Source: an uncultured Gemmatimonas sp.
Lineage (GTDB): Bacteria > Gemmatimonadota > Gemmatimonadetes > Gemmatimonadales > GWC2-71-9
Direction: 5' to 3'
Length of the DNA stretch: 61,056 nt
Assembly: GCA_964521535.1 (NCBI GenBank)
Contig: CAZFSA010000003.1
Location: 1 to 61,056 of the forward strand
Shown in pieces: positions 4,718 through 14,269 of the stretch (position 1 is the first letter of the stretch; the number at the start of each line of letters is the position of its first letter). The position numbers and the translations under genes are program-made. The notes beneath the pieces were generated by a model. It did not search any database. It was not told the DNA's origin and saw only the letters and a program-made list of their open reading frames with translations.

Positions 4718-5674
4718 CTAGGGTGACACCTGCCGGAGGGCCGCGTCGAGGAGCGTCACCAGCGAGTCGCGAGGGATGGTGAACCGGTGGCCCTGGTTGA
4801 GCAGGACCAGTTCCTCGAGCAGCTTCTGGGCGACCCGCGTCATGCCGGGGCCGGCGCTGGTGACCAGGTAGCGGGACTTGGGCGCCGGATCGGTCAGCGC
4901 GTGGTGGACCGCCTCGGCCACGTCGATCGGGTCCTCGTACTGGTCGTATCCCGCCATGACCCGGCCGAGCCGGCGAATGTCCTCGGGATAGCGGGACCGG
5001 GCGGCCCGGGCCTCGACGTCGCCAAGGCGGGAGAGCGCCGCGCGGCCCGCCTCCGAGCGGTAGTTGCCGGGCTCCACCGCGCTCACCTTGACGTCGAAGC
5101 GGGCCAGCTCCGCCGCCAGCGCGTCGGTGAACGCCTCGAGGGCGTGCTTGGTCATGCTGTACGCGCCCAGCATGGGCCCGCTCAGGACACCCGAGACCGA
5201 GCTGATGTTGCTGATCCGTCCCTTCGACTCGATCAGCATCGGTGCGAACGCCTTCACCAGCCGCCAGGGGCCGTAGACGTTGACGTCGAACTGCCAGACC
5301 ATCTCGGACTCTTCGTGCTCGATCAGCGGGCCCACGATGGCGCCCCCGGCGTTGTTGACCAGCCCGTAGAGCCCCCGGCCCTCCTTCCGCACCGTCTCCA
5401 CTGCCGCGGCAATCTCGTCGGGCCTCGTGACGTCGAGTCGGATCGCCTTGACGTTGGGCAGGCGGTCGAGCGCCGCCAGATCCTCCGACCTCCGGGCCGT
5501 GGCGTAGACGAAGTACCCGCGCGAGGCCAGGACGTCGGCGATCCGGCGTCCGATCCCGCTGCTGGCGCCCGTGACCAGGACCGCCTTCTGCCCCGACGGC
5601 TGCGGCTGGGCCGCCACCTGCGGCGCGGGCGAGGCGGCGAGGGCAACGAAGGCGAGCGCTCGGAACGTGGCCAT
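4718..5674 (-). CDS. SDR-family oxidoreductase with N-terminal signal-like segment
   Basis: TGASSGIG, NNAG and YSMTK (YxxxK) motifs. Confidence 0.9.
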   Translation of the reverse strand: MATFRALAFVALAASPAPQVAAQPQPSGQKAVLVTGASSGIGRRIADVLASRGYFVYATARRSEDLAALDRLPNVKAIRLDVTRPDEIAAAVETVRKEGRGLYGLVNNAGGAIVGPLIEHEESEMVWQFDVNVYGPWRLVKAFAPMLIESKGRISNISSVSGVLSGPMLGAYSMTKHALEAFTDALAAELARFDVKVSAVEPGNYRSEAGRAALSRLGDVEARAARSRYPEDIRRLGRVMAGYDQYEDPIDVAEAVHHALTDPAPKSRYLVTSAGPGMTRVAQKLLEELVLLNQGHRFTIPRDSLVTLLDAALRQVSP

Positions 5675-5772
5675 GGGAATCTCGAAGGGGAGGTTTGGCT
5701 GCGACTCGGCCCGGATCGGGGCGCCGGAAGACTCGGATCGACGGGAGCGGCTGTCAAGCCGCTCGGCCAACC

Positions 5773-6591
5773 TCACGGACGGGCGATCCCTTCCAGGAAG
5801 TCCACGATCGCCGCGATCATCCGGTCGCCCGCGAGCAGTTCGAGATCGTTGTGGTCGGCGCCGGGAATCATCACCAGCCGCTTGGCACCGGGCGCCGCCT
5901 CCCAGAGCCGCTCGCTCTGCCGCGGCGGGATGATTCCGTCGCGGTCGCCGGCAACCACCAGCAGCGGCACCTGCAGCCGGCGGATCCGGTCCAGCGAGGG
6001 ATAGCGCTCGCGGAGCAGGAGCCCGACGGGCAGGATCGGATAGTGATGGCGGCCGACATCCGCGAGGGACGTGAAGGGCGAGCGCAGGATCAGGGCGGCC
6101 GGCGGTCGCTCGACCGCGAGCCCCACCGCCACCGCCGCTCCCAGCGACTCGCCGAGGTAGGCTACCCGGTCGGGGGCCACCCCAGGTTGCCGGTCAACCC
6201 AGTCCCGGGCGGCGCGGGCGTCGAGTGCCAGCCCGCCTTCCGACGGCGCCCCCGGGTTGTCGCCGAAGCCCCGGTAGTCGAAGAGCAGGGTGGCGATGCC
6301 GCGCCGAGCCAGCGCCAGGGCGAGTGGCCCGCGGAACCCGCGGTGGCCGGCGTTGCCGTTGAAGACAATGACGGTCCACCCGGTCGGGGGACCGCTGGGG
6401 GGAACCAGCCAGCCGTGCAGCGTGAGGCCGTCGGCCGTGGGGAGCGAGACCGGCTCCGCGTCGGGCAGGCCGGCCCCGGCGGGCCCGGGCACCCCGCCCA
6501 TGGGAAAGTAGATGAGCCGCCGCTGCCCGGCCCAGACGAGGACGAGGAACAGGGCCACGACGGCGAGGAGGGTGAGCGCCAGGCGGAGCAC
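5773..6591 (-). CDS. Alpha/beta hydrolase with N-terminal membrane anchor (Bem46/ABHD13-like)
   Basis: QRRLIYFP, FNGNAG, DYRGFG, GESLG nucleophile elbow, GADHND; start uncertain (GTG 6591). Confidence 0.85.
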   Translation of the reverse strand: MLRLALTLLAVVALFLVLVWAGQRRLIYFPMGGVPGPAGAGLPDAEPVSLPTADGLTLHGWLVPPSGPPTGWTVIVFNGNAGHRGFRGPLALALARRGIATLLFDYRGFGDNPGAPSEGGLALDARAARDWVDRQPGVAPDRVAYLGESLGAAVAVGLAVERPPAALILRSPFTSLADVGRHHYPILPVGLLLRERYPSLDRIRRLQVPLLVVAGDRDGIIPPRQSERLWEAAPGAKRLVMIPGADHNDLELLAGDRMIAAIVDFLEGIARP

Positions 6592-6604
6592 GAGCCGGGG
6601 CTGA

Positions 6605-6660
6605 GTTAGCTGCAAGTGATGAGGAGGTTGTTCACTGAGCCGTAGCGCTGCACGACGGGG
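6605..6660 (-). mobile_element. IS481-like element end remnant
   Basis: Minus strand reads ...VVQRYGSVNNLLITCS*, resembling the NNLL-type terminus and terminal repeat of IS481 transposase genes. Confidence 0.45.
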
Positions 6661-6859
6661 TTTGACGGGGTTTGTCGAGAACACGCAATCGGCAAACGCC
6701 AGAGGACTCAGAGAACCAGCACAAGTTAGCAGGATTGACCCCGGTGGGGCGGGCCGGGATGGGCTGGCGGCTGGAAGGCGGCTATGAGCGGCCCGCCATA
6801 GTTCGCTCCAGATCGTGGCGGCGCTGCAGATGCCTCTGGCGTCGGTCGTCCACGTCCAG

Positions 6860-7045
6860 CGGGACTCGGGTGGCGCCGGCTCCCGCCCGCGGTCCGCCCG
6901 TGCACCGCTACGAGCGCCGGGTCCCCCGGGCCCTGGTCCATCTGGACATCAAGAGGCTCGGCGGGTCGGCCAGGGTGGCCGGCGGATCCACGGCAACCGG
7001 CGGACGCGGGTGCGGGGCATGGGCTGGAAGTACCCGCAGGGACGA
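6860..7045 (+). pseudogene. IS481-family transposase fragment (frameshifted)
   Basis: PVHRYERRVPRALVHLDIKRLG, then in another frame GGRRIHGNRRTRVRGMGWKY, matching the RYE..PG.LVH.D.KKLG / GGHRI.G...GWEY block of IS481 transposases. Confidence 0.75.
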
Positions 7046-7049
7046 ATCG

Positions 7050-7155
7050 ACCAGGTCCACGCTCGATGGCGACGTTCCTGACCCTGGCGTCCTGCCGGCA
7101 GATGAGATGATGACGTTTGTCGGGGTCCGCGTCGTAACTGCGCCGCTGGGCCACG
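7050..7155 (-). pseudogene. Fur-family regulator remnant (C-terminal metal-binding region)
   Basis: Translates YDADPDKRHHLICRQDARVRNV versus FEVNPDEHHHFICRKCGRVWDV in the intact fur at 11497-11985; DNA 7071-7152 aligns by eye with 11608-11688. Confidence 0.7.
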
Positions 7156-7573
7156 AGCACGGCCTGGCTGACCTGAGGGCTTGAGAAGGCCCTCGCCGCA
7201 GGCCAGATGGGCCTCAGGCAGGATGGGCCATACCCAACGAGCCTAACGGCAGGCCCGATGCCGTTGCGGACGCTTGAGACATGAAGACGACCTTTCGCCG
7301 GACAGCGAGAAGACCGTGGGCGTACATGCCCTCCCGACCCCACCTTCCAAACGCCTCCTCGACCTCGTAGATCGGGCTCCAGCTGGTTCCGGCGACGGTG
7401 CACGCCTCACTGATACTTCGTCCGCTGATTGGCCGCGGTTAGCGTGCTGCCCCGGGTGTCAATAGTCCCCTCTTGGTCAACTGAGTGACTTAGGCACCCG
7501 AGCTTGCGACCGAAGGGGCGGCAGGCAGACCCTCTCCCTAGCCCCCCACCTGTCCGCTCAGTTCGCGCCATAT

Positions 7574-7879
7574 TCAGGTTTGACCCCTGGGGTCGTCTAC
7601 GAACCCGTGTCGGATGCCGAGGACCACGAGATTCGGGTTCGACGTCGCCGCAAGGGTGCCACGCAGTTCGTGCAGGTACTGGTTCACCGTGTTCACGCTT
7701 ATTCCAAGGCTCCGCGCGATGCCTTTGGCAGGTAGGCCGTCGGCCAACGCCCTGAGCACGGCCGCCTTTCGAGGGCTTAGGGCCAGGCTTGGATCGATAC
7801 GTGACGTGACGCAACGCGACCGCGACACCGGTCCCTCAGCGGGTATACGACCAATATCGTTACGGGGGGGGGGGCACAA
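7574..7879 (-). CDS. Stand-alone LuxR-type HTH transcriptional regulator
   Basis: LSPRKAAVLRALADGLPAKGIARSLGISVNTVNQYL matches the LuxR/GerE HTH; start uncertain. Confidence 0.75.
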   Translation of the reverse strand: MCPPPRNDIGRIPAEGPVSRSRCVTSRIDPSLALSPRKAAVLRALADGLPAKGIARSLGISVNTVNQYLHELRGTLAATSNPNLVVLGIRHGFVDDPRGQT

Positions 7880-8048
7880 GAGGGTGAATAGTTCAGCTTA
7901 CCTGGTCATACCGTTCGCCGACGCACCTGGCACCGTGTGCTCCCGTCCGATTCTTGATCATCCCAGGAACTGAGGATTGTCGCTGCGGACGAACTGACGA
8001 AAGTTCAGACCCACGACCCACAGCAACCGTATAGGCCGGAACGAGATA

Positions 8049-8639
8049 ATGCTCCTCCAGAGCGACCGCCAGCACGCCGGCCTTCTGCGAACCGAGAGGC
8101 TCCCAGCGGCCGGCTACATTCGGCTTGTTCGGCTCTCCAGTAGCTGCCCTCAGGTCCACCTTGGTGTGCTCGTCGCCTTGCTGCTGATCTGCTTGAGCTG
8201 CACCTTCAACCGCGACATCCTTTCGCTAGACCTCGCAGATGGCAGCAATGTGAGCACCCTGGCCGGTGTCAATGATACCGTCGCCGTCCTGATGTATGAT
8301 CCCGCTGATTGCTTCACCTGCTCGACGCCGGTTCATGGCTGGCTCAGCTGGCAATCGGCGTCCGCTCATCGAACGGTCGTCCTTGTCCTCACGCGCCGCC
8401 CGACGCCGCTTGAGCGAAAGCTGCTCGTAGCGGCACGCCTTCGGGTGGGACCGACTCTGCGCCACACGGGCTCACGTCACCCGTGGCCAGCAATCGCGCT
8501 ATTTGCCCATGGCAGGACGCTCGCGATTGTTCGCGGCCGCACCGCCGTCCGGTCACTCGCCGACAACTACCTGCACGACCCGATCGCGATTGTCGCACCT
8601 GGCGCCGGCCCGCAGTCAGACCGTACCCATCCACAATAG
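8049..8639 (+). CDS. Putative exported/lipoprotein with thioredoxin-like CxxC motif
   Basis: Hydrophobic stretch ending LLLICLSC (lipobox-like); beta-strand then DPADCFTC; true start probably downstream of 8049. Confidence 0.6.
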   Translation: MLLQSDRQHAGLLRTERLPAAGYIRLVRLSSSCPQVHLGVLVALLLICLSCTFNRDILSLDLADGSNVSTLAGVNDTVAVLMYDPADCFTCSTPVHGWLSWQSASAHRTVVLVLTRRPTPLERKLLVAARLRVGPTLRHTGSRHPWPAIALFAHGRTLAIVRGRTAVRSLADNYLHDPIAIVAPGAGPQSDRTHPQ

Positions 8640-8658
8640 CAACAAAAGGGGCCTACAC

Positions 8659-8838
8659 ATGCAGACCACACTTGCTCTAAAGCGCGGACTGTTGCTCGCG
8701 TTGCTTCCACTCTCCGCTGGCACCCTCGTCTCGGGCCGCCCGGTTGAGGCGCAGGAGTTCTGTTACAAGATTCATCCCGTGACGGGTGTGTGCGAGTCTC
8801 CTGCTCTCACGGGCTGCAGCAAGGGCTGCAAGGGCTAA
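8659..8838 (+). CDS. Small secreted cysteine-rich peptide (59 aa)
   Basis: RBS-like AAAAGGGG before ATG 8659; Sec signal ending V-E-A; mature QEFCYKIHPVTGVCESPALTGCSKGCKG with 4 Cys. Confidence 0.75.
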   Translation: MQTTLALKRGLLLALLPLSAGTLVSGRPVEAQEFCYKIHPVTGVCESPALTGCSKGCKG

Positions 8839-8865
8839 CCGATTCGACGTACGCTTCGTACTTGA

Positions 8866-8902
8866 CCGAACCCTGGTCCGTGGGCCGGCACCAGGGCTTC
8901 GG
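8866..8902 (+). terminator. GC-rich stem-loop after the peptide gene (terminator or mRNA-stabilising hairpin)
   Basis: CCGAA-CCCTGGT-CCG pairs with CGG-(C)-ACCAGGG-(C)-TTCGG; no U-tract. Confidence 0.4.
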
Positions 8903-8954
8903 GGCCGTTGGCGCAGCTACTGGCCCCTCCGGACGATGACCGCGAGGCAACGCG

Positions 8955-10142
8955 ATGCCCAAGATCCCATTCCACCGACTCGCAGTTGGCGCTGCAATGG
9001 CAATGGCGGGCTGCAGCAATGGCCCACGGATGGCGTCGATTCGGAACGCCCATTGTACACCGGCCAGCAATCTGCAGCTGGCTCTGGTGGACTCCGTAGT
9101 CCTACGGGAGACCGACTCGGTCTATATCGGCGTGCCCGGTGCTAGCATCGTCGTGGCTCCGTCAGGCGATCTGCTAGTACCGGATTACGGCTTCGGTCGC
9201 TTGGTACGGTTCGCACGCAGCGGCGAGCTCCGCGGCACCATCGGCCACGTTGGCGGAGGACCTGGCGAGTTCCGCACTATCGGGGCCTTCGGGCTCGCGA
9301 CCGACCGCAGTCTTCTGCATATCGATGCCGGGGCCCGTCGGGTCAACGTCTTCGACGCGCAATCCGGCCTGTTTCGCACGGCGCTACCGTATGACGGCTA
9401 CATGTCTTGGATTACACATGACCGCGGCGAGTACTTGTTTGGCTTGATCGATTACGCCAACGGCATGTCGGTCGCAGTAGTACCCGATTCCCTGGTCGAC
9501 GGCTTGGCACCGATCGAAGGGACGAGACTGACCTCAGGCGCAGTGGCCTTGCCAGCCGAATATCGCACTTACCCGATGCTGCGCCAGTGGAACGATGCGA
9601 AGGTGACCCGCGCCCGTGACACACTCGTCGTCGCATTTGGCGGCCTTGACTACCTTGTCCGCGTGATCGGCTCAGACCGAGAAGTCGACACCTTCTACGT
9701 CCCGGTCTGCGGCCGACGCGGGACCTCCTCCGCAGTTCTTGAACAGTGGTTCCGGAACTCGCCGCGCACGCCGCGCGAGGCAGCCCACTTGGCAGCGGTG
9801 ACGGATAACGCCCTATCCGGCGCTGGCGGCCTCTGGCGACTCGGTGACGGCAAGTATCTCGTCTGGTATCAGGACCCTACGATTGACGCTGAGGGCAAGT
9901 CGCTCCTCGGCGTCGCGTTCGTCTCAGTTCTGTCGGCAGATCTACAGAGCGCATGTGTCGACGCCGCGATCAAAGCCCCCGGCTTGCAACGGCCGCGCAT
10001 TGGCTTCTACGCTGACTCGCTCTTTGTGCTTGACCAGACGACCGCAGATGTGGGAGGGGCGAGCCCCTCCACGGTCGTCAGGGTCTACGTACTCAAATCC
10101 GAGAACTGCCAGTGGCTTTCCACGAGTCAGCCCGATCGATGA
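8955..10142 (+). CDS. Lipoprotein with 6-bladed beta-propeller (NHL/TolB-like repeats)
   Basis: Lipobox MAGC; blades such as GDLLVPD...FARSGELRGTIGHVGGGPGEF and RVNVFDAQSG. Confidence 0.75.
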   Translation: MPKIPFHRLAVGAAMAMAGCSNGPRMASIRNAHCTPASNLQLALVDSVVLRETDSVYIGVPGASIVVAPSGDLLVPDYGFGRLVRFARSGELRGTIGHVGGGPGEFRTIGAFGLATDRSLLHIDAGARRVNVFDAQSGLFRTALPYDGYMSWITHDRGEYLFGLIDYANGMSVAVVPDSLVDGLAPIEGTRLTSGAVALPAEYRTYPMLRQWNDAKVTRARDTLVVAFGGLDYLVRVIGSDREVDTFYVPVCGRRGTSSAVLEQWFRNSPRTPREAAHLAAVTDNALSGAGGLWRLGDGKYLVWYQDPTIDAEGKSLLGVAFVSVLSADLQSACVDAAIKAPGLQRPRIGFYADSLFVLDQTTADVGGASPSTVVRVYVLKSENCQWLSTSQPDR

Positions 10143-10241
10143 GCGAACGACCCGAGTGTTGCCTGGGCGCCGTCGCGGCATCACAACGGAGTGAGAACTA
10201 GCACACAGAATTCGCGTTAAACAATCCCGCCGGACTCGCCG

Positions 10242-11263
10242 ATGCCGACATGCCCCGGTTCAGAACCGGACCCTGAGCCTCTGCCGACCCTGTATGCGCG
10301 CTGGTTGCGTGAGGCCTTGGGCACAGTCCCAAGCCGAGAACTGCGCGCCGACTGCGGCGACTGCCCCATGTCTAGCGACACCGCAGGCAGTCACGCGGCC
10401 GTCCGCTTCGACGACCGCGTGAAGTGCTGCACGTACTTGCCCGTGTTGCCGAACTACCTCGTCGGACAATGCCTGGCTGACCCGACGGTGCCCGCGGCGG
10501 GCGTCGCGATCGCTGCTTCGGTCGATCGCCGGCTCTTCAGTGCCCCCACCTGCTTCCGGAGTCAGGTCAATGCGGCATTTGGAATCACAGAAACGCAGTC
10601 TGTTCAACATGGTTTTGCAAGTACGATGGTGGCCGTGCCGGCTTTCGACAATGGCAAGCGATCGCCGCGCTGTTGGGCCTGGCCGAGCGCTCGCTGTCCC
10701 TCTGGGTGTGTCGCTCACTCGATATCGGCATCGACGCCCTCCGAGAACTCTGTTCGTACCGCGACGCGAAGACGGTGGACCTGTTGGGCGCGGAACTCCG
10801 CGGAAGCTGGCCCCTCGCGGCAGGCCGTCTCTGGGGGCCCTTGCTGGGCCGCGAACGGGACTTCTATCGCGAAGCAGCCGACCTGGTTGGAGCGCTGTCG
10901 TGGAGTGCAATACTGGAAATCGGGGGTTCAGAGCTAGAGATCTTGGCGCAACTCGCCCGGGACGCCGTCGAGAAGCGTGCCCTACCGGCCCCGACGCTCG
11001 TTCAACTCGGCACCTTTCGGATCCATGGTGGTCGGGAAGGGACGCCGCTGCTTGAAACCTACAGTCCGTATGATTGCCTGCCGGTCGGACCAGAGACGCT
11101 GGTGACGGTTCTGCGACGCCTGCCGAATCGCCGCCGGCGTGACCGTCGTGAGTTGGGCCTCAGCCAGTCGTCCGTCGAGGCGTTGCTGGCCCACGGAGTG
11201 CTCGTTGCGCCTGAATTCGAAGAGCAGGGCAAGGCTGCAGGGACCAGGGGTGGCGACCCGTAG
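10242..11263 (+). pseudogene. Cys-cluster (YkgJ/CxxCxxCC-like) protein, frameshifted near 10535
   Basis: Frame 1 gives CGDCPM...KCCTYLPVLPNYLVG; a different frame continues LQCPHLLPESGQCGIWNHRNAVCSTWFCKY into ORF 10673-11263. Confidence 0.7.
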
Positions 11264-11496
11264 GCCACCCGTTCCTTGGAATCGGCCGTCCAAATGGGTT
11301 GCCTGAACGTTCGGCGATCAACGGACAGCCGAGGGAGAACGAACGAGGGCGTACCACAACACCCTTCTCTGGTCCTCTGGAGACGGCGCAGCAGCCGGCG
11401 GCTGAATTCGTGGGCGGCCCGAACGGAGCTTCACGGATGGTGCGCTGCTGACGAAGCCCGAAACTCGGCAGACCCGCTCCGGCCGGTAGAGCCAGT

Positions 11497-11985
11497 TTAT
11501 CGGCAGCCCGCACACACCCCGTGCAGCTGCACCTCCCGCCGGTCGACCCGGAAGCCGTCGATCGCGGTCCGCCGGCGGTTGACCTTGACGTCCACGCCGG
11601 AGAGGTAGACGTCCCAGACCCGGCCGCACTTCCGGCAGATGAAGTGGTGATGCTCGTCGGGGTTCACCTCGAACTGCACCGCCGCGCCAGCCCGGTCCAG
11701 GGTGCGGATCAGGCCCTCGCGCACCAGCTCCTGCAGGTTCCGGTAGACCGTCGCGTGAGAGACCGTGGGCAGCACCCGGCGGACCTGGCGGACCAGGTCG
11801 TCTGCCGTGGGGTGGCCGACGGCGTCGCTCAGGACCCGGAGCAGCAGGTCGCGCTGGGGTGTGAGCCGGAGCCCGCGGCGCCGGCATTCCTCTCGGAGGC
11901 GGGCGTGGCCCTCCCCGGGCGGGGAGGGCCGCCGGGACGAATGGCGTGGGGCCTTGGCGGCCGTGGGTCCGGAGTGGTCAGGCAT
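11497..11985 (-). CDS. fur: Fur-family (PerR/FurA-like) transcriptional regulator
   Basis: RLTPQR, HPTAD, ATVYRNL, HHHFICRKC and C-terminal CAGC; divergent from katG. Confidence 0.92.
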   Translation of the reverse strand: MPDHSGPTAAKAPRHSSRRPSPPGEGHARLREECRRRGLRLTPQRDLLLRVLSDAVGHPTADDLVRQVRRVLPTVSHATVYRNLQELVREGLIRTLDRAGAAVQFEVNPDEHHHFICRKCGRVWDVYLSGVDVKVNRRRTAIDGFRVDRREVQLHGVCAGCR

Positions 11986-11991
11986 CCTACT

Positions 11992-12006
11992 TGATAATAG
12001 TTATCG
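11992..12006. promoter_or_regulatory. Fur/Per-box-like operator between fur and katG
   Basis: TGATAAT-A-GTTATCG, a near match to the 7-1-7 inverted repeat TGATAATnATTATCA, AT-rich in a GC-rich context. Confidence 0.7.
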
Positions 12007-12073
12007 GTCCGACTAGAGTCGAGGCCGGTCGCGCGAGGTCCTCCCTCGCCCACCCGCAACCCGCCAGGACTGA

Positions 12074-14269
<2,196 letters not shown>

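Follow-up and report, generated by a model that had tools for sequence, protein, structure and literature searches.

Does a lower-GC block in the genome of an uncultured Gemmatimonas sp. carry a peptide-based system analogous to those of Bacteroidota, or a set of unrelated neighbouring genes? The block lies in the stretch of DNA analysed here (61,056 nucleotides, hereafter the window). Our tentative answer, held at a little less than even confidence, is that this island may be a single instance of an envelope module that recurs among Gemmatimonadota and consists of a CxxC lipoprotein, an exported Cys-rich peptide and a six-bladed propeller lipoprotein. We found no literature on this Gemmatimonadota trio.

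Gene content of the island

GC content is 0.652-0.624 over positions 7001-11500, compared with 0.690-0.762 at 5501-7000 and 0.694-0.724 at 11501-13000 (rounded, 0.62-0.65 in surroundings of about 0.69-0.76). What is left of a transposase of the rve type (integrase core) marks the left edge (6894..7083, + strand). It was recognised by BLASTP: in a single comparison, window positions 6672-7184 matched the intact rve transposase beside the propeller gene of locus L012 with E 1e-11, 45% of residues being identical in an alignment of 66 aa. The L012 transposase carries PF00665 and PF13683, and the remnant ORF has no Pfam match. Within the block, the gene for a stand-alone LuxR/GerE HTH regulator of 101 aa (7574..7879, - strand; PF00196, E 7.1e-11, 42 bits with a cut-off of 23.5) diverges from four co-oriented genes. 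Its start codon is uncertain, and codons 3-6 of the called ORF contain a run of 11 G (7864..7874; C on the coding strand). The four + strand genes encode a CxxC lipoprotein, on its family motifs a putative thioredoxin-like thiol-disulfide oxidoreductase (8049..8639, CFTC motif at 8310-8321); a 59-aa precursor of a putative secreted four-Cys peptide (8659..8838, MQTT...CKG), recognised as an ORF with homologues; a six-bladed NHL/DUF5128-like beta-propeller lipoprotein of 395 aa with the lipobox AMAG-C20 (8955..10142); and an 8-Cys cytoplasmic cluster protein (10242..11263). Between the peptide and propeller genes lies a 116-nt spacer with stable hairpins (8839..8954, + strand); the predicted fold of 8830-8960 (-58.8 kcal/mol, z -2.14) was equalled by 5 of 200 shuffles, and no terminator-like site was found on the + strand. 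Directly downstream of the island are genes of the Fur family (PF01475, E 7.8e-25) and for a catalase-peroxidase (PF00141, E 6.1e-73).

The original prediction described a lower-GC block with a LuxR gene divergent from four co-oriented genes and included the Cys-cluster gene in the system. GC content, ORFs and Pfam matches bear out the layout, but the fifth gene is not intact. Its N-terminal CxxC...CC part lies in frame 3 (10242 to about 10535) and the remainder in frame 2, open from 10481 (10481-11263), so that it was called as two overlapping ORFs (10242-10937 and 10673-11263), and about 30 linker residues present in every full-length homologue are absent. Full-length homologues, 352-379 aa long, were examined at 23 loci from five phyla; at all 23 the gene is one uninterrupted ORF, and the neighbours are varied. 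By comparison with them the window's copy is probably a pseudogene outside the system, and the core is the trio of CxxC, peptide and propeller genes.

Distribution and linkage of the trio

Homologues of the CxxC lipoprotein were found in 31 of 301 Gemmatimonadota genomes (about a tenth), from 17 of 127 genera. Outside the window's genome, all 29 CxxC loci have a propeller HMM match within 1.5 kb of the CxxC homologue. Candidate peptides were defined by a signal peptide and at least three Cys; an ORF passing this rule occurs in 21 of the 29 loci, compared with an expectation of about 0.7 at genome-wide density. Enlarging the loci added four peptide ORFs (L092 and L093 by the rule, L077 and L085 by eye), bringing the total to about 25 of 29. 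The window's genome encodes 30 propeller ORFs, eight of which have a rule-passing peptide within 1 kb. Counted from the other side, 10 of its 31 rule-passing ORFs lie within 1 kb of a propeller ORF with 0.69 expected, and the arrangement is therefore far beyond chance. At least two of the ten look spurious (antisense ORFs C3 8807-9070 and C143 5755-6039). Small Cys-rich ORFs thus do stand beside homologues of the CxxC and propeller genes, as had been anticipated. The remaining 22 propeller genes have no rule-passing peptide and only two of the 30 have a CxxC gene, which suggests that most propellers function without these partners.

The peptide

Judged from its sequence conservation, the peptide ORF is a real gene, on three grounds. 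A strain from a second study shows no differences in the peptide gene, and 10 substitutions in the propeller gene, nine of them at third codon positions. Loci L020 and L022 encode an identical 26-aa mature core despite 12 differences in 78 nt, all synonymous, and their neighbouring propellers are identical at 268 of 397 positions. The number of Cys past the signal peptide is even in 32 of 34 distinct peptides. That the ORF is instead a chance frame in GC-rich DNA among unrelated neighbours is scarcely credible: spurious ORFs are common in high-GC DNA, as the antisense ORFs near propellers illustrate, but besides the synonymous changes and the genomic enrichment described above, the position of the ORF is kept across the phylum, a Shine-Dalgarno-like AAGGGG lies 7 nt upstream of its ATG, and it belongs to a homologous family with invariant residues. 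These homologues occupy the matching position at L013, L048, L050 and L069, and share Q32, K37, H39, G43, C45, P48 and C57. Counting against the proposed module, 16 of 17 pairs have a high pN/pS over the entire peptide (0.58-0.96). C-termini vary widely and cores are hypervariable between loci.

The precursor has a predicted Sec-type signal peptide, and with the cleavage site read by eye the predicted mature peptide is the 28-mer QEFCYKIHPVTGVCESPALTGCSKGCKG (8752-8835), with four Cys. The original prediction took the sequence PVEAQ at this site as a counterpart of the NVEALA motif. This reading is rejected, as none of 27 Gemmatimonadota peptides matches PF14055, nor is there any PF14055 match in the window's genome; the site is an ordinary signal-peptidase site (small-x-small/Gln), and the homologous peptides read ..NAQG, ..KAQD and ..SAQG in this region.

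The CxxC lipoprotein

An N-terminal Cys, the C-x-x-C motif, and a Trp, an Arg and a Pro are nearly invariant in the family (alignment A3), which comprises 552 cluster representatives at E<=1e-3 and has no Pfam match in any of 70 members. The gene start is uncertain: the ATG at 8049 puts a 35-aa extension ahead of the hydrophobic segment and the Cys. The model follows the order b-a-b-a-b-b-a at a mean pLDDT of only 65.5, and searches for a thioredoxin fold did not confirm one, with a best Foldseek E of 0.12, a best VIA Z of 4.0 and, in hhalign against a TlpA-like protein, a probability of 1%. Its linkage to the peptide gene, its CxxC and Pro motifs and the even numbers of Cys in the peptides lead us to infer that the protein may act on the disulfides of the peptide, in line with the proposal that it folds it. 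Among genes for possible redox partners, the window's genome has one VKOR and two DsbD_TM.

The propeller and its predicted complex with the peptide

The propeller scores 18.4 bits against PF17170, under the Pfam cut-off of 22.9, and is placed in the PF17170 (DUF5128) group on account of its fold and paralogues. Its model (pLDDT 87.0, pTM 0.84) is closest in Foldseek to 3s9j, a DUF4221 protein of Bacteroides vulgatus (E 3.5e-12, TM 0.60/0.65); the next matches are NHL domains, among which 4raa (BF0058) takes fifth place in the overall list. The propeller profile (A2) also matches NHL propellers in the PDB strongly (for instance Thin, E 7e-38; TRIM71, E 4.9e-34). Across 17 propellers the invariant or nearly invariant columns are G90, P200, G256, D336, L50, D77, G97, G100, G102, P103, E105, R254, S288, G299, D307, C334 and C385.

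The peptide is predicted to bind to the propeller lipoprotein, so that the proposed binding is supported in silico. Three predictions of the complex gave ipSAE values of 0.69, 0.68 and 0.76 (median 0.69), compared with 0.02 for the best of three controls. Among 80 solved complexes 58 attain this mark, as do 2 among 110 mismatched pairs; these counts apply only roughly, since our own alignments were used. The runs share at least 74% of contacts with partner pLDDT of at least 58, that of the peptide being only 59-65. The conserved peptide loop is predicted to lie on the central face of the propeller, with contact residues 37-38, 40-52 and 57, including the invariant K37, G43, C45, P48 and C57. 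The interface columns of the propeller are more variable than the rest (2.59 versus 2.07 bits, a value reached in 0 of 10,000 permutations), which fits pair-specific recognition but may reflect merely the difference between surface and core.

Comparison with known systems

Bacteroidota loci that combine NVEALA peptides, propellers and CxxC proteins do exist, as seen in one genome of Phocaeicola (gut Bacteroidales), and the Gemmatimonadota island, as an analogous trio in another phylum, matches their gene order. This Phocaeicola genome (G325) has 20 PF14055 matches; 17 exceed the cut-off, and 15 are gathered in about 32 kb. Of 12 NVEALA ORFs, 8 are followed by a gene that matches a propeller family in Pfam (PF17170 DUF5128, PF15869 TolB_like or PF13970 DUF4221), and an NVEALA gene follows 4 of 4 CxxC-DUF1573 genes. 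In this genome as in the island, a CxxC lipoprotein is followed by a small exported peptide whose Cys-rich tail is hypervariable and by a propeller lipoprotein (about 340-390 aa), and the window's propeller is structurally nearest to the Bacteroides DUF4221 protein named above. Both CxxC proteins carry the lipobox Cys and then ..D-x-x-x-C-x-x-C-x-x-x-L-x-x-W; hhalign between the two families gave a probability of 43-50% (E about 2e-4, 67 columns), and the Gemmatimonadota CxxC HMM has no match in the Phocaeicola genome at E<=1. The phyla differ in that Gemmatimonadota peptides have ordinary Sec signal peptides in place of NVEALA, their CxxC protein lacks the DUF1573 Ig-like domain, and their modules are single or few, without long tandem arrays. 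The regulator in the island is an HTH-only LuxR protein, and the island has neither the dedicated S26 signal peptidase nor the Trans_reg_C membrane protein of the Phocaeicola arrays.

Eukaryotes offer a precedent for such a pairing in plant SOQ1 (10.1101/2021.03.16.435614) and human NHLRC2 (PMC6107167), in which a Trx-like, CxxC-bearing domain is fused to a six-bladed propeller of the NHL type and acts with it outside the cytoplasm. The island differs in encoding the CxxC and propeller proteins by separate genes with the peptide gene between them. SOQ1 matches the propeller profile weakly (E 0.06-0.24). We know of no small Cys-rich peptide partner of SOQ1 or NHLRC2.

Two bacterial systems offer analogies. 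In LanI-type immunity to lantibiotics (NisI, SpaI) the gene for an exported peptide adjoins that for a lipoprotein anchored in the membrane, and the lipoprotein binds the peptide once it has left the cytoplasm. The propeller lipoprotein beside its exported-peptide gene may be compared with these in manner of working only: the LanI fold is unrelated to the propeller, LanI hosts are Gram-positive, and antimicrobial activity of the island peptides is conjectural. Methylamine dehydrogenase has an analogous cast in mauB, mauA and mauD, which encode a propeller heavy subunit, a small disulfide-rich exported light subunit and a CxxC thioredoxin-like helper on which the disulfides of that subunit depend. 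MauB, however, forms a propeller of seven blades, and the light subunit, at about 130 aa, bears a cofactor that MauG makes from tryptophan; mauG-like, mauE-like and haem genes are absent from the island.

Alternative readings and a proposed mechanism

The exported peptide might be a signal, either one that the cell makes for itself or one that conveys the condition of its envelope, with the propeller as receptor and the LuxR-type HTH protein as transcriptional output. The window's LuxR protein belongs to an HTH-only subfamily whose best seven members in the genome (contigs C3, C143, C75, C91, C95, C60 and C85) each have a propeller ORF no more than 1.3 kb away; a REC-LuxR response regulator adjoins another propeller on C87, the layout of a peptide gene divergent from a LuxR-propeller pair recurs in a sister genome (L245), and LuxR-type ORFs adjoin the trio in L020, L083 and L080. 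On C143, an HTH (PF00196, E 2.5e-6), a hydrophobic segment and a propeller form a single open frame of 504 aa, from which a Cys-rich peptide gene diverges. This form is seen in only one of 75 matches (41 genomes), and its closest orthologue has the HTH and propeller in separate frames, so that the fusion may be a frameshift or assembly error. The window's LuxR protein is moreover a bare HTH that lacks both a sensor and a membrane segment, and no transducer connects it with the propeller, a lipoprotein located outside the cytoplasm. Most trio loci outside the window's genome lack the LuxR gene (HMM matches at only 4 of 32; no phmmer match to the window's LuxR in 20 enlarged loci), and the Phocaeicola arrays hold a dozen or more peptide-propeller pairs, which is unusual for signalling systems. 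We regard a signalling role as unlikely.

It is also improbable that the propeller modifies or chaperones the peptide, or that the peptide plugs it permanently as a small subunit, a role that small Cys-rich subunits have in methylamine dehydrogenase and quinohemoprotein amine dehydrogenase. The predicted seat of the peptide is the central face, which in propeller enzymes carries the active site; relatives include peptidyl-hydroxyglycine amidating lyase (3fvz, E 8.9e-8, A2 profile against the PDB) and virginiamycin B lyase (2z2o, E 1.5e-8, Foldseek), and the window's peptide ends in Gly. Yet neither His nor another usual metal ligand is among the conserved columns of the 17 propellers, variability is greater in the predicted contact columns than elsewhere, peptide C-termini are diverse, most propellers have no peptide gene nearby, and the island genes include none for radical-SAM, haem or flavin maturation. 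The Fur-family and KatG neighbours and a Cys-rich peptide with an invariant His could point to oxidative stress, with the peptide as a periplasmic metal binder or redox buffer recycled by the CxxC protein. This neighbourhood is absent from the other loci examined, however, the island's GC is unlike that of these two genes, the hypervariable cores are unlike metal-binding motifs and the cognate propeller is left unexplained, making a buffer very improbable.

The module thus gives the best explanation, which as a whole, mechanism included, we place slightly below an even chance. Sec would export the 59-aa precursor, and cleavage after ..VEA would release a 28-residue peptide with N-terminal Gln and four Cys. 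The membrane-tethered CxxC lipoprotein would form or reshuffle its two disulfides, and once the peptide has folded, its conserved K-x-H-P-x-x-G-x-C-x-x-P loop would enter the central face of the cognate propeller, touching all six blades. Taken together, export, oxidation and binding are probable. The propeller would then retain the peptide at the membrane, where self-protection against a bacteriocin-like peptide, or its capture, seems the likeliest purpose; we give such a toxin/immunity role, which would be akin to lipoprotein immunity against lantibiotics, rather less than an even chance, and propellers lacking a peptide could then be orphan binders. Neither an outer-membrane exporter nor an antimicrobial-type family is encoded among the island genes; lacking such an exporter, the peptide may stay periplasmic for good. 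Transcription of the operon may be controlled by the LuxR protein. A divergent HTH-only LuxR regulator accompanies the module in the window's genus.

Organization of the island

The results support a module that pairs an exported peptide with a propeller lipoprotein, the two being predicted to recognise each other, and that has a CxxC protein as helper. In the window the three genes are co-oriented on the forward strand. The CxxC lipoprotein gene (8049-8639) encodes a hydrophobic N-terminus closing in Cys and a CFTC motif; it is followed by the gene for a small exported Cys-rich peptide (8659-8838; product MQTTLALKRGLLLALLPLSAGTLVSGRPVEAQEFCYKIHPVTGVCESPALTGCSKGCKG), the ORF of which starts 19 nt past the end of the CxxC gene and 7 nt past the sequence AAGGGG, and then by the propeller lipoprotein gene (8955-10142; 395 aa, lipobox AMAG-C20). 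The 116-nt spacer between the peptide and propeller genes (8839-8954) gives a stable fold (z -2.14). Upstream lies a LuxR/GerE-type HTH gene on the reverse strand (7574-7879, 101 aa), and downstream a broken fifth gene for a Cys-cluster protein, which occupies two frames (10242-11263).

The lower-GC block described in the original prediction is confirmed, GC being 0.62-0.65 across approximately 7000-11500 and 0.69-0.76 on both sides. At the left edge of the island is a degraded remnant of an rve-type transposase (6894-7083), which has 45% identity over 66 aa to an intact transposase from a different genome of the genus (L012:4164-4931), where it adjoins a related propeller gene. This edge remnant, its intact counterpart and the drop in GC suggest that the module is mobile. 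Analysis of flank synteny found a close orthologue of the flanking hydrolase in none of 22 relatives, and orthologues of the flanking Fur gene in four. Directly past the island, this Fur-family regulator gene (11497-11985, reverse strand) is divergent from a KatG-type catalase-peroxidase gene (12086-14269, forward strand), both with a GC content normal for the genome. PADLOC returned nothing for four island proteins, and generic HTH matches only for the LuxR protein.

Conservation of the gene trio

Of 41 related genomes, 28 have relatives of the propeller; within the genus the count is 20 of 21. The CxxC profile is positive in 31 of 301 genomes of the phylum, distributed over 17 of 127 genera, and all 29 CxxC loci outside the window's genome have a propeller HMM match within their 1.5-kb flanks. 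Peptide genes were called with a strict rule (13 residues with at least 9 AILVFM, uncharged, then 12-75 residues with at least 3 Cys). The scan of small ORFs beside propeller and CxxC homologues that the original prediction proposed had a positive outcome: ORFs passing the rule are present at 21 of the 29 loci, and 20 enlarged loci add four more peptides, two by the rule (L092 and L093) and two by eye, with longer linkers (L077 and L085). No peptide ORF was seen by rule or eye at the enlarged loci L081 and L090, and L047/L017 and L072 were counted neither as peptide-positive nor as peptide-negative. The trio is arranged in three ways: as CxxC-peptide-propeller (the window's order), as peptide-propeller-CxxC, or as peptide-CxxC-propeller.

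The window's own genome (4.49 Mb) carries 30 propeller ORFs by HMM search but only two CxxC genes. It has 31 ORFs that pass the peptide rule. No more than 1 kb separates 10 of these from a propeller ORF, against an expectation of 0.69; two of the 10 look like antisense artefacts.

The propeller lipoprotein

The confident structural model of the propeller (pLDDT 87, pTM 0.84) has as its top Foldseek match the DUF4221 protein 3s9j of Bacteroides vulgatus (E 3.5e-12, TM 0.60/0.65), followed by NHL domains (E 2e-10 to 4e-9) and the B. fragilis protein BF0058 (4raa). In the PDB, a profile built from 17 relatives matches Thin (E 7e-38), TRIM71 (4.9e-34) and Brat (4.5e-14), as well as 4raa (E 1.7e-9) and peptidyl-hydroxyglycine amidating lyase (E 8.9e-8). 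Profile match and modelled fold together place it among the NHL-repeat six-bladed beta-propellers. The window copy itself scores below the Pfam cut-off for DUF5128 (PF17170; 18.4 bits against 22.9, E 1.4e-3), and it is placed in the DUF5128/TolB_like/DUF4221 group through its paralogue L022:10935-12050, which passes PF17170 with 38.6 bits, through the homologues P0002 and P0006, in which PF17170 is present, through its fold, and through the Atlas, where the closest clusters are 75-96% PF17170 and come from Rhodothermota, Aminicenantota, Acidobacteriota and Gemmatimonadota.

The exported peptides

We gathered 34 distinct peptides, all with Sec-type signal peptides and 32 with an even number of Cys. 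A small-x-small-Gln site stands ahead of the first Cys in 19 of the 34, Gln making up just 2.7% of all residues. These 19 mature peptides would begin with Gln, perhaps as pyroglutamate, which is reminiscent of the Bacteroidetes Q-rule. According to PMC5837995, the text of which leaves Gemmatimonadetes unmentioned, the rule is not valid throughout the FCB group.

The peptide cores split into several families that look unrelated. The window peptide groups with those of L048, L050, L069 and L013 (the paralogous locus on contig C153 of the same genome), with invariant Q32, K37, H39, G43, C45, P48 and C57; it has four Cys, and its group six. Two lines of evidence show the peptides to be genuine genes. 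L020 and L022 encode the same 26 mature residues with 12 synonymous differences in 78 nt, and the propellers of these loci are 67.5% identical. In an approximately 99% identical strain from a second study the window's peptide gene is unchanged and the propeller gene has 10 substitutions, of which nine affect third codon positions. For the whole precursor, 16 of 17 pairs give a pN/pS of 0.58-0.96, which counts against strong constraint on the peptides. A 93-aa Cys-rich ORF 5' of the L017 propeller was dropped from the set, as the rule finds no signal peptide in it.

Tandem duplicates occur, with two peptide copies between the CxxC and propeller genes at L048/L076 and L050/L078, and three peptide genes in a row ahead of another propeller gene at L094:11613-12660. 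One subfamily (L054, L058, L059, L061 and L070) has a conserved hydrophobic tail, CC-x-x-x-PPIIV, and in other subfamilies (L062, L064, L071 and L052) kindred tails (DPIIV, PPIII and PPVVV) come after the last C-x-C. Such a tail may be a strand added to the propeller, or a sorting signal.

Predicted peptide-propeller complex

Complex prediction was run with propeller residues 29-395 (17-row alignment) and peptide residues 28-59 (6-row alignment). The docking envisaged by the original prediction succeeds in silico, with scores of 0.69, 0.68 and 0.76 against 0.02, 0.01 and 0.00 for the controls; 58 of 80 solved complexes and 2 of 110 mismatched pairs pass the tool's mark, counts that apply only roughly given the custom alignments. 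At least 74% of contacts are common to the runs, partner pLDDT is at least 58, and peptide residues 37-38, 40-52 and 57 contact residues of all blades. The contact columns vary more than the remaining propeller columns. Peptides are often seen on the top face of propellers in solved structures, and likeness to these known complexes may therefore account for part of the score.

The CxxC protein

The product of the CxxC gene matches no Pfam or NCBIfam model, and none of 70 sampled family members has a Pfam match. A word-index search with the protein finds itself alone, and of 10 relatives nine are nameless in their records and one is a "hypothetical protein". An exhaustive profile search puts 552 cluster representatives in the family at E<=1e-3, of which 351 reach E<=1e-10. 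Near-invariant are the N-terminal Cys, which supports its status as a lipoprotein, both Cys of the CxxC (C53/C56), a Trp seven residues on, an Arg and a Pro (P112).

The order of elements in the predicted secondary structure (b-a-b-a-b-b-a) is that of thioredoxin. The model, however, is of low quality (pLDDT only 65.5), its top Foldseek match is a thioredoxin at E 0.12, the best VIA Z is 4.0, the family profile has no PDB match below E 0.1, and alignment with a TlpA-like protein by hhalign gives a probability of 1%. The homologue in L017 has an AhpC-TSA match at E 0.052. Given the poor model and the lack of significant fold or profile matches, we call the protein putatively thioredoxin-like. 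As for redox partners, the window's genome has VKOR and DsbD-type genes and DsbB was not found in it, so that either redox direction is possible for the CxxC protein.

Comparison with Bacteroidota

A scan for the back-translated NVEALA motif identified a Phocaeicola genome (G325) in which 17 NVEALA (PF14055) genes score above the cut-off, the majority lying in a single array of approximately 32 kb. Here the gene next after 8 of 12 NVEALA ORFs encodes a DUF5128, TolB_like or DUF4221 lipoprotein, and four lipoproteins of approximately 289 aa, each consisting of an N-terminal domain with YVDSVGCMSCKLQLPRW and a DUF1573 domain, have an NVEALA gene next after them. The Bacteroidota loci described in the original prediction, and the analogous set in the window, thus find support in this one Phocaeicola genome, down to the same order CxxC, peptide, propeller (at 2531/3679/4020 in L236, and at 361/1475/1779 and 5430/6572/6879 in L237), with all three genes on the forward strand in the window.

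The view of the window peptide as an NVEALA counterpart is not supported. Neither NVEALA nor any other Pfam family matched the peptides: PF14055 (cut-off 27 bits) gives no match at E<=10 among 27 of them, and none at E<=1 in the window's genome; the Phocaeicola genome, as a positive control, returns the 17 genes above the cut-off. The two kinds of CxxC protein are borderline in hhalign comparisons (probability 43%, E 2.5e-4 with P0158, and 49.7%, E 1.7e-4 over 67 columns with A5, both on the Bacteroidota side), and the window-type family HMM finds nothing at E<=1 in the Phocaeicola genome. The DUF1573 domain of the Phocaeicola lipoproteins is absent from the window protein. The Phocaeicola CxxC domain alone has 2360 relatives at E<=1e-5, which, where source names are given, are called "DUF1573 domain-containing protein" (Bacteroidaceae, Bacteroides, Phocaeicola).

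The Phocaeicola arrays also carry S26 signal-peptidase paralogues (PF10502, E 4e-32 and 2e-30) and Trans_reg_C membrane proteins, whereas S26 signal peptidase is absent from all six ORFs of the island. The S26 paralogues within the NVEALA arrays are oversized (L236:8717-9631 and L237:17853-18752), and the A-L-A of NVEALA, approximately 20 residues past the hydrophobic segment, could be their cleavage site.

Possible function and the LuxR-type gene

For the predicted peptide-propeller recognition we favour a role in capturing a bacteriocin-like peptide or in protecting the cell itself against one, on four grounds: the hypervariability of the peptide families from locus to locus, the many propellers that lack a peptide gene, the tandem arrays of Bacteroidota, and the commonest gene orders, which put the peptide gene immediately before the propeller gene. 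The main rival is signalling through the LuxR protein. This protein has a clear HTH domain (PF00196, residues 33-86, 42 bits against a cut-off of 23.5, E 7.1e-11), and its seven most similar HTH proteins in the window's genome all adjoin propeller genes; Pfam and NCBIfam searches found no receiver or autoinducer-binding domain in it, and its gene is outside the phylum-wide core. Its propeller-linked paralogues are HTH-only as well, for which reason the reading as a truncated response regulator was rejected.

On another contig of the genome (C143:4308-5822, reverse strand, equal to L239:809-2323), an HTH, a hydrophobic segment and a propeller share one 504-aa frame, with a divergent 6-Cys peptide gene. 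None of 74 other matches has this single-frame form, and the closest orthologue, L245 of a sister genome, has the same layout and an orthologous divergent peptide with the genes in separate frames. A conserved LuxR-TM-propeller fusion was rejected on these grounds, and the single frame reflects a genuine fusion of recent date or else a frameshift. In the window, a run of 11 G (7864-7874) covers codons 3-6 of the called LuxR ORF, inside the 7831-8001 gap of the second-study contigs; it could be a slippage site or a weak point of the assembly.

More broadly, it is possible, though less likely than not, that Gemmatimonadota and Bacteroidota have an undescribed envelope system in common, in which each hypervariable family of disulfide-rich exported peptides would have its own recognising six-bladed propeller lipoprotein and a dedicated CxxC lipoprotein would make the disulfides, as a new class of toxin-immunity (or peptide-receptor) system. 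If true, this would explain the large NVEALA/DUF5128/DUF4221 arrays of human-gut Bacteroidales. The DUF5128, DUF4221 and TolB_like propellers and the NVEALA peptides are annotated without an assigned function, and a literature search on the NVEALA, DUF5128, BF3164, DUF4221, TolB_like (PF15869) and DUF4934 families found no relevant paper. Recurrence of the layout in a second phylum, where the signal peptides are ordinary and accessory genes are lacking, delimits a minimal core, and the in-silico docking provides a concrete hypothesis testable by binding, specificity, disulfide formation and growth inhibition. Should the peptides be antagonistic or signalling, they would give access to a large reservoir, as yet unexplored, of small bacterial peptides rich in disulfides.

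The fifth gene

The Cys-cluster gene, counted as a member of the system in the original prediction, is probably a bystander and a pseudogene. The CxxC...CC head and the remainder lie in different frames, and the gene lacks approximately 30 residues that all full-length relatives have. Proteins of the family (approximately 360 aa; L023:2557-3693 and 22 other loci) have eight invariant Cys (C-x2-C...CC...C-x10-C-x9-C-x4-C), a conserved C-terminal domain and no signal peptide. They are encoded as single ORFs among unrelated neighbours in at least five phyla (Gemmatimonadota, Chloroflexi, Acidobacteriota, Myxococcota and Methylomirabilota), and beside a propeller gene in just two places, the window and L022. 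A full-length homologue has no Pfam (PF03692 included), NCBIfam or PDB match; in the Atlas a YkgJ cluster is listed at only 0.83, which is a lead only, and the nearest clusters are mostly from Myxococcota. A role as peptide maturase was rejected on the missing signal peptide, the varied neighbours in five phyla and the broken state of the gene here.

For 7500-11300 seven sequencing runs were listed, all of them DNA contigs, from two studies, and none RNA. The second-study contigs end at 10509 and restart at 10519 (run X4) or 10543 (run X3), so that the decisive frameshift stretch falls between them. In one X3 contig of that strain, the spacer between the propeller and Cys-cluster genes carries a 2-nt insertion and a 1-nt deletion (window positions 10167 and 10219).
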